From the NCBI GenBank assembly GCA_045546695.1, contig JAZQDE010000008.1:27782-91781 (forward strand): 64,000 nucleotides of DNA, written 5' to 3'. Origin of the DNA: Clostridia bacterium (GTDB taxonomy: Bacteria > Bacillota > Clostridia > UBA1212 > UBA1255). The notes below the pieces were generated by a model, which did not search any database, was not told the origin of the DNA, and saw nothing but the letters and a program-made list of their open reading frames with translations. Positions 23,178-52,845 of this stretch are shown here, one piece after another (position 1 is the stretch's first letter; each line of letters starts with the position of its first letter). The position numbers and the translations under genes were made by a program.

Positions 23178-23501
23178 TTATAATAATAGATATACCAGTG
23201 CCAACATAATTAAATCAATATCTTTAGATTCTTTCTTATCAGAATTATTAGAATCTTTTGTATTTCTTTCAATCATAAATATAATTATTAATCCAATCAG
23301 AATTATGTCATCAAGCTCAATATTTATATTGAAATTTCTATTTAATACATTTTTTAATTTCTGCAGTACATTATTCGTGTTATCTTCTTTTTTTCGTGAA
23401 AAACTTTCTTTTTTATTTTTCTCCAATGAACGTACACTCATTGGAGAAATTTCTGTTGGATATGAAAAATTGTATTTTTTTACAATTCGGCGTCTTTTCA
23501 T
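23178..23501 (-). CDS. Hypothetical small protein with a basic N-terminus and a C-terminal TM helix. Third gene of a three-gene cassette.
   Basis: Start ATG overlaps the stop of the upstream ORF (ATGA). Lys/Asn-rich with hydrophobic IILIGLIIIFMI. The overlapping + strand ORF 23119..23505 is F/L/I-rich, the typical antisense of an AT-rich gene. Confidence 0.45.
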   Translation of the reverse strand: MKRRRIVKKYNFSYPTEISPMSVRSLEKNKKESFSRKKEDNTNNVLQKLKNVLNRNFNINIELDDIILIGLIIIFMIERNTKDSNNSDKKESKDIDLIMLALVYLLL

Positions 23502-23872
23502 TTAATTTCTACCATCTTAGCCAGAGTCAGCATCGTTACACAGTTTTTTATTTTGCTTTTTCTTTTGTCATTTAAAAACGGGCTTAGCGCATATAACAAT
23601 TTAATCTTATCGTCATTTTTAGCGAGCATTGTTGATTGTCTGTATTTATTCAGTAATTCAATTATTTTACTGATATCAATATCACCGGGCAGATCATTCT
23701 GATCATTACTTGTGTTTACGTTTTGTTCACAATTTATTTTGTCTAATTGTGAATTGTTATTACCAAGATTATTCAGAACGGAATTAACTATTTCATCCAT
23801 ATTATCCGGCAGCTCATTTAGTCCGAACAATGAGCCTATTTCCTTAATTTTATTATTAAGCTCAGCGTCCAT
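23498..23872 (-). CDS. Hypothetical small soluble protein (124 aa). Second gene of the cassette.
   Basis: Reading frame is open in a 30%-GC region where stops are frequent. 14-nt gap to the upstream ORF. No motif recognised. Confidence 0.5.
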   Translation of the reverse strand: MDAELNNKIKEIGSLFGLNELPDNMDEIVNSVLNNLGNNNSQLDKINCEQNVNTSNDQNDLPGDIDISKIIELLNKYRQSTMLAKNDDKIKLLYALSPFLNDKRKSKIKNCVTMLTLAKMVEIK

Positions 23873-23886
23873 ATAAATTCCTCCAA

Positions 23887-24192
23887 TTATTTTTTATTAT
23901 AAAGTATTTCATTAATTTTGCTCATAATCTGAGTCTGATTATTACCGGCAAGAACTTTAATTTTTTCAATATCCTGCGGAGATAAATTTTTACGAATACT
24001 TTCTAAATCGATATTCATTTCACGTATTTTTTCAGTATCAAGATCGTTTATTTTTTTCAAAAGTTCTTCACGGTTTACTTTAGATAGTTTTTGTGCAAGC
24101 TCCTGAGTTGATTTATTTTTTAATTCATTTAAACCGTACTCAATCTTATTAGCCATAATTTTGTTATCGATACTCTTTTTTATGTTTGACAT
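23887..24192 (-). CDS. Hypothetical coiled-coil small protein (101 aa). First gene of the cassette.
   Basis: Heptad-like K/E/L-rich sequence. An AT-rich promoter region lies upstream at 24193-24310. Confidence 0.5.
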   Translation of the reverse strand: MSNIKKSIDNKIMANKIEYGLNELKNKSTQELAQKLSKVNREELLKKINDLDTEKIREMNIDLESIRKNLSPQDIEKIKVLAGNNQTQIMSKINEILYNKK

Positions 24193-24310
24193 TATATGCC
24201 TCTGAAAATATGTCGTTTATGTTTTATTGTATGCTACTCTCCCCTTTCGTAGTTCATAATAAATTATAAAAACGGGAATATCTTCCAATTAAATATCCAA
24301 TAATAAGCTT

Positions 24311-24844
24311 ATGAAAAATTTTATTTATTTTGTAATATACAGTTTTATAGGGTTTATTATTGAAACATTATACCGGCTCGTTACAAAAGGTGTTTTTATG
24401 ATTAAAAAGTGCTTTTTGTTTAATTGTTTATGTCCGGTGTATGGTGTTGCTGCATTATTGATAATATATACAACACAAAATATTAAAAATAAGCCTTTGA
24501 CATTCTTGATCGGAAGCCTTGTATCAAGCGCAACAGAGCTGATTTTCGGTATGATTTATTTTAATTTACTGAATGTCAGAATCTGGAATTATTCTGATAT
24601 GTATTTAAACTTGTATGGCCATGTAAATCTGATTTATTCACTATTTTGGGGTATTTTATCATTAATTTTAGTATATAAAGTCCATCCGGTTGTAAAAAAT
24701 ATCGTCTCAGAAATTAAAATTCCAAAGTCAGTATTTGCTTGTATTATAATAATCTTTATAATTGACGTACTTTTCAGTAGTTTTTTCATGAAAAAATATA
24801 AAACAGCCAATGCTTTATCGCTCAGTTGGCTTATTAATCATTGA
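24311..24844 (+). CDS. Small polytopic membrane protein (DUF1113 / putative ABC-transporter type IV CmpB-like family).
   Basis: N-terminus FIYFVIYSFIGFIIETLY and 4-5 TM helices resemble PF06541-type proteins. This is a tentative call. Confidence 0.5.
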   Translation: MKNFIYFVIYSFIGFIIETLYRLVTKGVFMIKKCFLFNCLCPVYGVAALLIIYTTQNIKNKPLTFLIGSLVSSATELIFGMIYFNLLNVRIWNYSDMYLNLYGHVNLIYSLFWGILSLILVYKVHPVVKNIVSEIKIPKSVFACIIIIFIIDVLFSSFFMKKYKTANALSLSWLINH

Positions 24845-24910
24845 CTAATCTTAATTTAGGTTGTAAAATGTACAGGTATAAATTTTGTACTTAAATTTTG
24901 GAGGTTATTT

Positions 24911-25468
24911 ATGATATCAGCAGGCGATTTTAGAAACGGCATGACATTTGAGATGGATGGCGGAGTTTTTCAGGTTGTTGAATTCCAGCATGTAAAGCCC
25001 GGTAAAGGCGCAGCTTTCGTTCGTACAAAGATCAGAAACGTTATTACAGGTTCAACAGTTGAACGTACATTCAACCCTACAGATAAGATGCCACCCGCTC
25101 ATGTAGATCGCAGAGACATGCAGTACTTATATAATGATGATGGTCTTTACTACTTTATGGACGTTGAATCATATGAGCAGATTCCTGTTAGCCAGGATAC
25201 TGTTGGTTCAGCTCTTAAGTTTGTTAAAGAAAACGACATTTGCAAGATTCTTTCTTTCAAAGGCAACGTATTTGGTATTGAGCCACCTATTTTTGTTGAA
25301 CTCGAAGTTACAGATACAGAACCCGGCTTCAAGGGTGATACAGCTACAGGCGCTACAAAGCCCGCTACTGTAGAGACAGGCGCTATGGTTAAGGTTCCCC
25401 TCTTCATTAACATCGGTGATAAGATCAGAATCGATACAAGAACTGAAGAATACATGGAAAGAGCATAA
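24911..25468 (+). CDS. efp: Elongation factor P.
   Basis: [44 protein letters not shown]... is canonical EF-P. Confidence 0.95.
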
Positions 25469-25489
25469 TTTATTTTTGGAGGTAATATT

Positions 25490-25954
25490 ATGGGTTATTT
25501 ATCAGAAAGAGTTAGTTATTTAAGAGGCCTCGTTGATGGTCTTGGTATTGACAAGACTACAAAAGATGGCAAGATTTTAGATATTATCGTTGATTTACTC
25601 GACGATATGGCTATTTCAATTGAAGATGTTGAAGCATCAAACAACGATCTTCTCGAAGCAGCTGATGAGACAGATGAGAGACTTTGCGACATCGAAGATT
25701 ATCTTTATGATGAAGAAGACGAAGATGACGACGAGTGCGATTGCTGTGACTGCTGTGATTGCGAAGATTGCGAAGATTGCTATGCAGAAGTTGAATGCCC
25801 CGGCTGTGGCCAGGTAATTGAGCTTGAAGAAGTTCTTGCAGAAGGCGCTGATTCTATTATCTGCCCTAACTGCAAAGAAAAGATCGAAATCGAATGGGAA
25901 GACGACGAAGATGAATGTGATTGCGGTTGCTGCTGCCACTGTGAAGAAGAATAA
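25490..25954 (+). CDS. Highly acidic, cysteine-cluster-rich zinc-ribbon protein of unknown function, coupled to efp.
   Basis: Strong RBS GGAGGT 8 nt upstream, 21 nt after the efp stop. The helical N-terminal domain is followed by ECDCCDCCDCEDCEDC, a CPGCG...CPNC zinc ribbon, and CDCGCCCHCEEE. Confidence 0.7.
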   Translation: MGYLSERVSYLRGLVDGLGIDKTTKDGKILDIIVDLLDDMAISIEDVEASNNDLLEAADETDERLCDIEDYLYDEEDEDDDECDCCDCCDCEDCEDCYAEVECPGCGQVIELEEVLAEGADSIICPNCKEKIEIEWEDDEDECDCGCCCHCEEE

Positions 25955-25975
25955 TCACCAAATTTATTGATTTTA

Positions 25976-26009
25976 ACGGTGTGACAATATAAGTTGCACC
26001 GTTTTTTTA
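25976..26009 (+). terminator. Intrinsic terminator after the efp/Cys-rich gene pair.
   Basis: acggtg...caccgt stem followed by TTTTTTT. Confidence 0.55.
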
Positions 26010-26032
26010 TAAGTAATTGAGGAGTAAGAAAC

Positions 26033-27346
26033 ATGTTAATGGAAAAATTTTCACAAATGAATGGTAAAAAATGTGCCTGTGGCAAAATTCACATGCATAC
26101 AATTAAGGATATTATTACGGGCTGCGGAGTAATCAACACACTCCCCTCTTTATTAAAATCTAATAAAAAAGCATTTGTTTTATGTGATCTGAATACGTAT
26201 GAAGCTGCCGGTAAGAAGGTTTGCAATATTCTTGAAGATGCAGATCTTCTTTATACATGTTATGTTCTTCCTGAAAATAACCCGGAGCCGTATGAAAAAA
26301 GCGTCGGTTCTGTCATTATGCATTACGATACATCATGTGATGTAATTATAAGCGTTGGCTCAGGCGTAATGAATGATATAGGCAAAATACTTGCAAACGT
26401 CAGCAATAATCCATATATAATTGTTGCAACAGCGCCTTCAATGGATGGATACGCATCTGCCACTTCATCGATGACACGTGATGGTCTTAAAGTGTCACTG
26501 CCCAGTAAAAATGCAGATTATATCATCGGCGATTCTGATATTTTATGTAATGCGCCGACAAAAATGCTTGCGTCCGGCCTCGGTGATATGATTGCAAAAT
26601 ATGTCAGCATCTGTGAATGGCGTATATCAAATATAATCACAGGTGAATATTATTGCGATGAAATAGCAGCTCTCGTGCGTGCTTCGTTAAAAAAGTGTAC
26701 AGATAATGCCGATGGTCTCATGAAACGCTCTCCTGAGGCCGTATTAGCCGTTTTCGAAGGATTGGTAATATGTGGAGCCGCAATGACGTATGCCGGCTTA
26801 TCACGCCCTGCATCAGGCTGTGAACACTATCTGTCTCATATATGGGATATGCGCGGCGTTGAGTTCAATACAAACGTTGATTTTCACGGTGTACAGTGCG
26901 CCCTTGGCACGTTAATTATAAGCCGTCTTTACGAACAGATTCTGAATACAAGTCCTGATAAAAACAAGGCTCTGCTATACGCTGAAAATTTTGATGTTGA
27001 TAATTGGTACGAGGAATTAAAGACATTTCTTGGAAAAGGTGCCGAAAGCATGATTCAGCTTGATAAAAAAGAGCAAAAATATAATACCAAAGCGCATAAA
27101 GAGCGCCTTGATATTATAATTGAAAACTGGAATAAAATTATGTCTGTTATCAGGGAAGAAATCCCCTCTTCAGACTTTATCTATAATTTACTCGTGACAC
27201 TTAATCTGCCTGTAACTGTTGAAGGTATCGGTCTGCCCGGCGACATATTGCCGATGACTTTTAAAACTTCAAAAGATATCAGAGATAAATACGTGTTGTC
27301 ACGTCTTGCATGGGATATTGGAATAATTGATGAATTAACATTCTGA
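26033..27346 (+). CDS. Iron-containing alcohol dehydrogenase-fold enzyme (sn-glycerol-1-phosphate dehydrogenase / AraM-EgsA-like).
   Basis: VIISVGSGVMNDIGKILANVS and APSMDGYAS are typical of the dehydroquinate-synthase-like G1PDH family. Confidence 0.6.
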   Translation: MLMEKFSQMNGKKCACGKIHMHTIKDIITGCGVINTLPSLLKSNKKAFVLCDLNTYEAAGKKVCNILEDADLLYTCYVLPENNPEPYEKSVGSVIMHYDTSCDVIISVGSGVMNDIGKILANVSNNPYIIVATAPSMDGYASATSSMTRDGLKVSLPSKNADYIIGDSDILCNAPTKMLASGLGDMIAKYVSICEWRISNIITGEYYCDEIAALVRASLKKCTDNADGLMKRSPEAVLAVFEGLVICGAAMTYAGLSRPASGCEHYLSHIWDMRGVEFNTNVDFHGVQCALGTLIISRLYEQILNTSPDKNKALLYAENFDVDNWYEELKTFLGKGAESMIQLDKKEQKYNTKAHKERLDIIIENWNKIMSVIREEIPSSDFIYNLLVTLNLPVTVEGIGLPGDILPMTFKTSKDIRDKYVLSRLAWDIGIIDELTF

Positions 27347-51194: not shown

Positions 51195-52463
51195 TCAAAG
51201 ATATTTCTCAATATATTTTTTGCCATCGCCATAAGTGTCAATGATATAATCCATGTCTTTGTCGCCTCTGCCTGACAGACAAACAAGAATTGATCCTGTA
51301 TTGTGCGTTTTTGCATACTTAATAGCGTATGCAAGTGCATGTGAACTCTCAATAGCAGGAATAATACCTTCAAATCTTGACAACAGATAAAAAGCTTCAA
51401 GTGCTTCTTCATCATCAGCTGTAACATAATTAACTCTGCCACAGCTATGCAGATATGCGTGTTCAGGACCTGCAGCAGGATAATCAAGTCCGCTGGCAAC
51501 TGAATATACAGGAGCCGGCTCGCCATTTTCATCCTGAAGCATAATACTCTCAAAGCCATGCATAATGCCCTTTGTACCATATGTTATAGAAGCTGCATGA
51601 TCACCCATCTGTGTACCTCTTCCAAGAGGTTCAACTCCATAAATGTTTACAGGTTCATTTAAGAATGCTGAAAACATACCCATAGAGTTTGAGCCGCCTC
51701 CAACACAAGCAACAACATTATCAGGAAGAAGTCCTGTCATCTCAACGAATTGATCCTTTGCCTCATATCCTACAACTGACTGGAAATCTCTTACCATCAT
51801 CGGGAACGGATGCGGTCCTACGCATGAGCCGATACAATAAATAGCATCCTTATACTCATTTTTATATGCTTCAAATGCACTGTCAACAGCTTCTTTAAGC
51901 GTCTTAAGACCATGTGTAACCGGAACAACGTTTGCACCGAGGAGCTTCATTCTTGCAACGTTAGGTGCCTGTTTTGCGATATCTACTTCGCCCATATATA
52001 CGTCACATTCCATACCAAAATATGCAGCCGCAGTAGCGATAGCAACACCATGCTGTCCTGCACCTGTCTCTGCAATCAGCTTCTTTTTACCCATAAATTT
52101 TGCAAGTAAGCCTTCGCCCATGCAGTGATTGAGCTTATGTGCTCCTGTATGGTTCAAATCTTCTCTTTTAAGATAAATCTGACATTTTCCAAACAAATTG
52201 GAAAGTCTATCACAATGATATACAGGAGTAGGTCTTCCCTGGAATTCTTTTCTGATTCTTCTGAGCTCGCTTATGAACTTTGCACTGTGACAGATAGTTT
52301 CATAGCTGTCAGTAATTTCCTGCATAGCAACCTGCAGATCAGCAGGTAAAAAAGAACCGCCGAAATCACCGAATTTACCATCTTCTGACGGGAAATCTTT
52401 TAAATAATTATCAAAATCTTTATAAGTCTTTTTATCCATATATATTACCTCCGTTAAATTCAA
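51195..52463 (-). CDS. trpB: Tryptophan synthase beta-chain-type PLP enzyme (stand-alone TrpB).
   Basis: HTGAHKLNH carries the PLP lysine. GGGSNSMG and the glycine-rich loops are typical of TrpB. Preceded by a T-box leader. Confidence 0.75.
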
Positions 52464-52519: not shown

Positions 52520-52845
52520 CACCTCTTGTTAAAAAAAGTCTTTGTCCTTAAAACCATAGGACAAAGACTGATAATCTCTGCGGTGCCACCTAAATTGACG
52601 TTTGTCACGCCCACTCATTAGTATACAAACATATACTGTCCAACTTACGTATGGAAACACGTCGACCATTACTCGCTTTAATGCTTTCCTGTCGCCCTCA
52701 TAAGTCCATTCACAGATATAATGCATATAACCTCACACCGGCCGGCTACTCTCTGAAATGATAAACATCTGCTACTCTTCTTAATCACAGGTTTTCAATA
52801 TTCGATTTTTTTAATTAAACAACATTAAATATTCGTTGTCAAGCA
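52520..52845 (-). promoter_or_regulatory. T-box riboswitch leader (probably tRNA-Trp-responsive) with terminator, upstream of trpB.
   Basis: Minus-strand sequence AATTTAGGTGGCACCGCAGAG (reverse complement of 52566-52586) matches the T-box consensus AATTAGGGTGGTACCGCG. The terminator hairpin agtctttgtcc...ggacaaagact plus U-run is at 52520-52559. A candidate promoter (TTGACA -35 and TTTAAT -10 on the minus strand) is at about 52842-52814. Confidence 0.65.

Follow-up and report, generated by a model that had tools for sequence, protein, structure and literature searches.

Which function is carried by a short, extremely acidic and cysteine-rich protein whose gene directly follows efp, the gene of elongation factor P (EF-P), and why is it encoded at this place? 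The accessory and modification systems of EF-P, a universal translation factor, vary between bacterial lineages; to our knowledge, those of Clostridia are essentially unknown. The gene was analysed in a stretch of 64,000 nucleotides of contig JAZQDE010000008.1 from a Clostridia bacterium, which is called the window below.

Organization of the efp locus

The locus contains the following features.

24841..24869, + strand: sigma-70-like promoter candidate upstream of efp, TTGACT-17-TAAAAT, with 10/12 consensus matches; it is a consensus match only, and such sites are no commoner than in shuffled sequence
24911..25468, + strand: efp, encoding elongation factor P (185 aa) with the Lys-type loop HVKPGKG (open reading frame; Pfam EFP_N, EFP and Elong-fact-P_C on the identical gene)
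25478..25483, + strand: Shine-Dalgarno sequence GGAGGT of the CD1247-family gene, 6 nt before its ATG
25490..25954, + strand: CD1247_Nterm-family gene, 154 aa plus stop, ATG at 25490
25975..26013, + strand: intrinsic terminator 3' of the CD1247-family gene, with an 11-bp stem, a 7-nt loop and a T-run (hairpin 25975-26003)

A single terminator-like site was detected within 24200-26200, and it lies 3' of the CD1247-family open reading frame (ORF). With one promoter-like site 5' of efp and one terminator 3' of the ORF, efp and the CD1247-family gene therefore probably form a two-gene transcription unit in the window. The preliminary description had reported a 154-aa ORF 21 nt after efp with its own GGAGGT and a common terminator, and this arrangement was recovered. 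The two genes do not overlap; the 21-nt gap and the separate Shine-Dalgarno sequence suggest co-transcription, not strict translational coupling. The pair is flanked by genes for a CmpB-like membrane protein upstream and a Fe-ADH-type dehydrogenase downstream, and Rfam and tRNA scans gave no match near the locus.

Composition and parts of the protein

The window protein contains 19 Cys (12% Cys), 56 Asp and Glu, 8 Lys and Arg and one His, with a pI of about 4.05 and a net charge of about -48. The strongly negative charge described earlier was confirmed, but the earlier count of 23 Cys was too high. The Cys residues are located at positions 66, 83, 85, 86, 88, 89, 91, 94, 97, 103, 106, 125, 128, 143, 145, 147, 148, 149 and 151. 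Along the chain, the segments follow each other in the order DEEDEDDDE, CDCCDCCDCEDCEDC, CPGCG...CPNC and CDCGCCCHCEEE, and the C-terminal end is CHCEEE. The coding region is divided into the following parts.

25499..25708, + strand: N-terminal helical domain, aa 4-73 (NF045650 match, AlphaFold2 pLDDT 87-97)
25709..25780, + strand: acidic run and Cys/Asp cluster 1, aa 74-97, DEEDEDDDECDCCDCCDCEDCEDC, predicted to be disordered without metal
25781..25891, + strand: zinc ribbon, aa 98-134, CPGCG-x17-CPNC, with invariant C103, C106, C125 and C128 (alignment, AlphaFold2 model)
25892..25951, + strand: acidic tail with Cys cluster 2, aa 135-154, region of WEDDEDECDCGCCCHCEEE (sequence; pLDDT <50 for aa 139-154)

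A layout of four parts in this order had been proposed before; the order is correct and is found family-wide, but the N-terminal domain is about 73-75 aa long instead of about 60 aa. The ribbon spacer, previously given as 16 residues, counts 17 after CPGCG.

Family membership and distribution

The protein matched the NCBIfam model NF045650 (CD1247_Nterm) with 68.8 bits, against a cut-off of 30, and an E value of 4.5e-19; aa 4-73 aligned end to end with model positions 1-70 of 70. NF045650 is described as 'CD1247 N-terminal domain-containing protein' after CD1247 of Clostridioides difficile, and the homologues named by NCBI (P0010 and P0044) bear the same name. The window protein is thus a bona fide member of the NF045650 family, which is already catalogued, and this family corresponds to the Clostridial proteins with low-complexity Cys/acidic tails, named after nothing but their conserved N-terminal domain, that the preliminary description had mentioned. 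A Pfam scan of the window protein gave no family at E<=1, and a literature search returned no relevant paper on CD1247 or on a gene downstream of efp in Clostridia, and no published function.

The word-indexed search found 231 homologues. With a profile of the N-terminal domain, 2,979 clusters were obtained at E<=1e-3 and 1,976 at E<=1e-10 among 1.84 billion representative proteins. Relatives were present in at least 584 species genomes in a scan of one genome per GTDB species, for which a 12-sequence alignment served as the query and from which the 80 best-scoring loci were retained. These 80 loci are mostly labelled Clostridia-type, and three oddly labelled bins among them are probably contaminated. 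The family as a whole is large and was seen only in Clostridia-type genomes. The named hosts are Oscillospiraceae, Ruminococcus, Pseudoflavonifractor, Acetivibrio, Caproicibacter, Lutispora, Thermoanaerobacterium and Caldicoprobacterales.

In almost all listed homologues the N-terminal domain is located at the extreme N-terminus of a protein of about 130-170 aa, and shorter entries may be contig-end fragments. Other domain architectures were considered and rejected, as the long outliers look like frameshifts, wrong starts or chimeras: P0248, with the N-terminal domain, a His-rich stretch and CobW_C, comes from one 1,149-bp contig only, P0259 is fused to BacA, and P0261 continues on from efp. 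The chimeras among these outliers seem to be joined within the low-complexity tract.

Conserved architecture

The alignment comprised 31 sequences that are 36-85% identical to the window protein, 25 of the 30 homologues being only 36-51% identical. Residues M1, E6, Y10, G13, G17, the four ribbon Cys and P126 are invariant, and C83, the first Cys of cluster 1, is kept in at least 90% of the aligned sequences. Conservation within the protein is highest in the N-terminal helix motif.

A recognisable ribbon was found in 113 of 119 homologues. Almost all of these (112/113) possess at least two Cys outside the ribbon, with two or more before it in 94 and after it in 91. There is no Cys before the ribbon in 12/113 and none after it in 16/113, so neither cluster appears to be individually essential. 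The cluster length spans 0 to 12 Cys across the family, and in one subgroup (P0059, P0066, P0073 and P0086) the tail is replaced by C-x3-C-x2-C-P. The family median per protein is 14 Cys, 54 acidic and 6 basic residues, and 72 of 115 homologues have a C-terminal Glu. The succession of N-terminal domain, acidic Cys cluster, CPxC...CPxC ribbon and, in most members, a second Cys cluster is therefore the architecture of the whole family.

Linkage to efp

By tblastn with the window EF-P, efp was found directly upstream and on the same strand in 77/77 informative loci; in the other three of the 80 the contig stops about 200 nt or less upstream of the CD1247-family gene, which makes them uninformative. 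Three further diverse contigs again carried efp directly upstream (3/3), and their downstream genes encode an M29 peptidase, an ECF transporter component and a nitroreductase. The window EF-P is 61-87% identical to the EF-Ps encoded upstream of the homologues. The synteny refutes the idea of strain-specific drift. Together with the operon structure in the window, it supports the earlier claim of co-expression with EF-P.

The gap between efp and the family gene has a median of 59 nt (range 12-436, 77 loci). In 72/77 loci a Shine-Dalgarno-like site precedes the start by no more than 20 nt, and only 4/77 have a terminator-like hairpin inside the gap. With such a median, and with the gap and Shine-Dalgarno sequence of the window gene, the expression 'translationally linked' used earlier is too strong, and strict coupling is not indicated.

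Neighbouring genes were clustered for 65 loci. An M24 Xaa-Pro peptidase was located at -2 in about 35 of them and aroQ at -3 in about 21, and spoIIIAA, AB and AC were located at +1 to +3 in about 25. The order aroQ, M24 peptidase, efp, spoIIIA is an old Firmicutes arrangement. None of aroQ, the M24 peptidase and spoIIIA is invariant, and the position directly behind efp is the sole invariant genomic feature of the CD1247 family. Since efp is kept while the other neighbours change, the gene travels with efp and not with spoIIIA. This adjacency is an empirical feature found here and stands outside the curated definition of NF045650.

The EF-P loop is of the Lys type (HVKPGKG) in 60 of 62 loci, and EF-P itself is acidic with a pI of 4.93. 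The mirror-tree distance-matrix correlation of the N-terminal domain was r 0.67 with EF-P and 0.61 with the M24 peptidase as a control; the value for EF-P is barely above that of the control, so no specific co-evolution signal was obtained.

Predicted structure

An AlphaFold2 model was built from the 31-sequence alignment, with a mean pLDDT of 75. In the model and the alignment, a short helix of aa 3-17 carries the conserved motif E6/Y10/G13xxxG17, and a GxxxG-type motif of this kind is a classic close-packing motif. A single long helix of 49 residues (aa 25-73) follows, with a pLDDT of 91-97 over residues 21-70, and the ribbon is predicted as four short strands in aa 100-133. The pLDDT is <50 in aa 79-97 and aa 139-154, which are exactly the two Cys/Asp clusters.

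In the long helix, the family-averaged hydrophobicity is strongest at a period of 3.5 residues, and positions 47, 54, 58, 61, 65, 68 and 72 show the heptad a/d spacing (3-4). From this periodicity and spacing, the C-terminal half of the helix is a canonical coiled coil as judged by its sequence, and on the basis of the coiled coil we infer that the protein is very probably an oligomer.

Foldseek against the PDB gave no match below E 0.2, and the PDB sequence-profile search gave only weak generic zinc-ribbon and coiled-coil matches (best E 0.0011). Nothing beyond generic zinc ribbons and helices was thus found in the PDB by sequence or fold.

Patterning of the Cys/Asp clusters

Motifs were counted in the Cys/acid segments of the homologues and compared with shuffles within these segments. 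In sequences that are related, and hence not independent, and that were drawn from different 90%-identity clusters, C-D-C was observed 333 times versus 54.8 +/- 7.0 in shuffles and C-G-C 67 times versus 8.9, and C-E-C was depleted with 7 observed versus 33.3. The depletion of C-E-C is notable because these segments contain nearly as much Glu as Asp. The clusters are patterned beyond mere composition.

In the DNA of the Cys region only short 9-nt repeats of 2.3-2.8 copies were found, and the relative P0003, which is 97% identical, is without exactly one EDC unit. Slippage operates at this locus, and part of the pattern is mutationally driven. Slippage accounts for the length variation, but not for the preference for a short side chain between cysteines. 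At least 20 metagenome contigs encode the identical protein; four of them were inspected and derive from four different samples. This recurrence shows that the low-complexity part is not an assembly artefact, a possibility that had been raised in the preliminary description.

It might be argued that the clusters are nevertheless slippage-driven junk or an artefact, and that only the N-terminal domain and the ribbon matter. The short repeats, the different copy number of the unit between 97%-identical strains and the broad range of cluster lengths would agree with this explanation. However, the recurrence of the identical protein in several metagenome samples, the retention of extra Cys in 112/113 diverse homologues, and the preference for C-D-C and C-G-C with avoidance of C-E-C, which slippage alone does not predict, make it hardly credible.

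Comparison with known proteins

Metallothioneins are defined by Cys-X-Cys and Cys-Cys motifs, and alternating acid-Cys is the phytochelatin pattern. Like metallothioneins (including SmtA/BmtA), the window protein is dense in Cys, contains both motifs and has clusters predicted to be disordered without metal, and its alternation of acid and Cys resembles the (gamma-Glu-Cys)n of phytochelatin-like (Glu-Cys)n peptides. However, no sequence or fold homology to either group was found. The protein differs from metallothioneins in its charge of about -48, its folded coiled-coil N-terminal domain and its discrete Cys4 ribbon; metallothioneins known to us are not polyanionic and have no folded coiled-coil domain. 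It does not belong to Metallothio_Pro (SmtA/BmtA), as the window protein hit no Pfam family at E<=1. By analogy, its way of working may be most like that of a metallothionein or phytochelatin, without a family match.

The ribbon has the CPxCG-x16-20-CPxCG pattern with short beta hairpins in common with the MJ0042/Zn_ribbon_4, YjdM (PhnA) and LysW ribbons. Homologues scored 33.0 vs 30.8 with the Pfam model YjdM, 27.5 vs 30.3 with Zn_ribbon_4 and 24.4-25.1 vs 27 with LysW, and in the PDB profile search LysW matched the family profile at E 0.0027, but the window protein itself reaches no Pfam ribbon model. LysW is acidic like the CD1247-family proteins, which usually end in Glu. An identity as a LysW carrier protein was rejected: the domain cut-off was not reached, the EDWGE tail is absent (the window protein ends in CHCEEE), and no LysX-type ATP-grasp or lysine/arginine biosynthesis neighbours were found at the loci examined.

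DksA/TraR and HP0958/CT398 (DUF164) resemble the window protein in size (about 150 aa), in their acidic coiled coil and in a Cys4 finger whose spacer measures about 17-18 residues. A DksA/TraR regulator was also rejected, with no PF01258 match, an hhalign probability of 2.3% and a single long helix in the AlphaFold2 model instead of a hairpin. Dph3/Kti11, the electron donor in diphthamide synthesis on eEF2, is likewise a small acidic Cys4 knuckle protein that is functionally tied to a translation elongation factor, and it recurs among the weak matches. These matches are non-significant (E 0.11-1.2), however, and the window protein has no CSL motif and no nearby Dph1/2-like partner. For Zn_ribbon_CSL of Dph3/Kti11, the best result was E 0.0024 in one homologue, with 18 bits against a cut-off of 29.2, and this assignment was not accepted.

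Possible function

We propose that the product would be a soluble cytoplasmic polyanion whose N-terminal domain mediates oligomerisation by its heptad coiled coil. In the oligomer, the structural Cys4 zinc ribbons and the two flexible Cys/Asp clusters would be brought together, and the C-D-C, C-C and C-G-C units of which the clusters are built could bind divalent or soft metal ions in a multidentate manner with thiolate and carboxylate groups. The most plausible metals in anaerobes would be Zn(II) or Fe(II)/Fe-S. Thiols are free to bind metal in a strictly anaerobic cytoplasm, and ligand-rich segments with no order of their own typically become folded when they bind metal ions. The role of the protein might resemble that of a metallothionein, or of a phytochelatin-like (acid-Cys)n buffer or donor that is encoded by a gene, and its place on the efp transcript would tie its level to the translation capacity.

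The preliminary description had likened the tails to those of metal-storage or metallochaperone proteins. From composition and motif pattern, metal binding as such has about an even chance of being correct. The whole reading, an oligomeric metal-thiolate binder co-expressed with EF-P in a buffer or donor role, is more tentative, and we rate it at somewhat under even. No homology to a known metallothionein, metallochaperone or Fe-S scaffold was found in Pfam (E<=1) or in the PDB sequence and fold searches. The absolute linkage to efp is not accounted for by a pure buffer, neither Cys cluster seems individually essential across the 113 members, and part of the pattern is driven by 9-nt slippage.

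In the main rival reading, the protein would be a dedicated accessory factor of EF-P or the ribosome that regulates, chaperones or helps to modify EF-P rather than storing metal, which we consider possible but rather unlikely. Docking on EF-P, the ribosome or an enzyme that modifies EF-P would take place through the E6/Y10/G13xxxG17 surface or the ribbon. The polyanionic coiled coil and tails would mimic a nucleic acid or shield charge, and through the Cys clusters the interaction would be sensitive to redox or metal state. In favour of this reading are the efp linkage, the one invariant feature of the family, and the highly conserved N-terminal helix motif, which suggests a specific partner. 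The nearest Pfam ribbons (MJ0042-, ZitP- and LysW-type) are known protein-protein modules. The EF-Ps concerned are of the Lys type, and in Bacillus a Lys-type EF-P undergoes post-translational modification by a pathway that is known only in part. A profile match of the acidic coiled coil to the DNA mimic T7 gp5.9 (E 0.09) points in the same direction but is not significant, and EF-P is itself acidic, the mirror-tree comparison gave no specific signal, and no modification enzyme occurs among the conserved neighbours of the 65 loci. A narrower form, in which a Clostridia-specific EF-P partner senses metal or redox state as a polyanionic adaptor, or acts as a Dph3-like cofactor, and controls EF-P activity or the modification of Lys32, is distinctly unlikely. 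Dph3 is also the parallel for a redox or iron protein, in which the CPxCG knuckles would bind Fe as in rubredoxin or Dph3/Kti11, or the CDC/CGC clusters would carry Fe-S, with a role as electron donor or Fe-S carrier, possibly for a radical-SAM-type modification of a translation factor. Rubredoxins, HypB and A-type Fe-S carriers are known to contain CPxCG knuckles and C-G-C motifs, and Zn and Fe are not separable by sequence alone at CPxCG knuckles. The tail C-x3-C-x2-C-P of the one subgroup, the weak matches to Kti11/Dph3 (profile E 0.11; Foldseek rank 3, E 0.49) and the CSL zinc finger hit of one homologue would be in line with such a protein. These matches are nonetheless below significance and typical of any zinc ribbon, the aromatic core of rubredoxin is not evident, and the conserved neighbours in the 65 loci and the three contigs include no radical-SAM or other redox enzyme, which makes the redox or iron protein improbable.

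A last explanation connects the gene with sporulation, as a functional part of the spoIIIA locus, for instance a Cys-rich accessory protein of the spore or the feeding tube. Spore coats and exosporia often contain Cys-rich proteins, and spoIIIA homologues follow the gene in about 25/65 loci. Against this, those loci only retain the old Firmicutes gene order, efp is kept and spoIIIA is lost where the neighbourhood breaks (the window and the three contigs), and the terminator of efp is common to the gene in the window. In the accessible part of the supplementary tables on the C. difficile sporulation sigma-factor regulons (PMC3789822), CD1246, CD1247 and CD1248 were absent, a weak negative as locus-tag formats may differ. 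The accessible part of the C. difficile Tn-seq essentiality supplementary tables (PMC4358009) likewise had no entry, with the same weakness. A sporulation role is very improbable.

Significance

The linkage to efp in every locus examined, in a family of thousands of clusters, is a strong guilt-by-association lead. The two points that should be passed on are this invariant linkage (77 loci, three contigs and the window) and the non-random C-D-C patterning. If metal binding is true, the family would be a new, unusually acidic type of bacterial thiolate-cluster protein of gut and rumen anaerobes. If the protein acts on EF-P, it would offer a route to how Clostridia tune polyproline translation, and as an EF-P partner it would be the first EF-P accessory factor in this anaerobic lineage, with polyproline translation tied to metal or redox status. 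The family, including CD1247 of C. difficile, is now a well-defined target.

Length and layout of the Cys-rich clusters

Within the gene of the CD1247 family, which lies directly 3′ of efp, part of a cysteine cluster is encoded by a short tandem repeat.

25757-25780: 2.7 copies of the 9-nt unit GATTGCGAA, coding for EDC repeats

A relative with 97% identity (P0003) is without exactly one such 9-nt EDC unit, and therefore the length of the cluster varies by slippage among near-identical strains. A different layout was found in a subgroup of four homologues (P0059, P0066, P0073 and P0086; e.g. L086 5001-5450), which is nearly Cys-free ahead of the zinc ribbon and carries a fixed C-x3-C-x2-C-(P/K) tail motif (e.g. 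ECDGDCENCP) in place of the CDC repeats; efp is still located directly upstream. Of 115 homologues, 72 end in Glu and 19 in Asp, even though the two residues have about the same abundance in the family tails overall. This preference for a C-terminal Glu recalls the LysW-type carriers; no enzymes matching such carriers were found near the family genes.

Other features of the window

Two further features were recognized in the window.

23178-24192, minus strand: three consecutive small ORFs (107, 124 and 101 aa), rich in Lys, Asn and Glu
52554-52797, minus strand: T-box leader, scoring 112.8 bits with the Rfam model RF00230 (gathering score, 93)

The three small ORFs, for which no Pfam match is on record, are located just upstream of the CmpB-like membrane-protein gene, which then precedes efp, and they are also called on two independent metagenome contigs (L081 and L084). 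Downstream of the T-box leader lies an ORF of 422 aa (51195-52463, minus strand), presumably an aminoacyl-tRNA synthetase or amino-acid gene.

Bin labels, gene calls and a possible fusion

Clostridia-type pairs of efp and the CD1247-family gene were found on three contigs (L025, L062 and L076) whose bins are labelled Bacteroides sp., thaumarchaeote and Sodaliphilus sp.; these labels likely reflect contamination of public MAG bins. On a metagenome contig (L082, 124-1230) the CmpB-like membrane protein and EF-P were called as one 368-aa product upstream of the same CD1247-family gene; the probable cause is a frameshift, sequence variant or artefact of gene calling.

One homologue of 202 aa (P0248, L085 145-753) joins the CD1247 N-domain through a Cys/His-rich stretch to a CobW_C domain of the COG0523 metallochaperone type, which scores 25.3 bits (cut-off, 22). 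It is known from a single contig of 1,149 bp only, and its N-terminus is identical to that of an ordinary family member (P0104); the protein is probably an assembly chimera formed via a low-complexity tract. If the fusion were real, it would support a metal role for the family.
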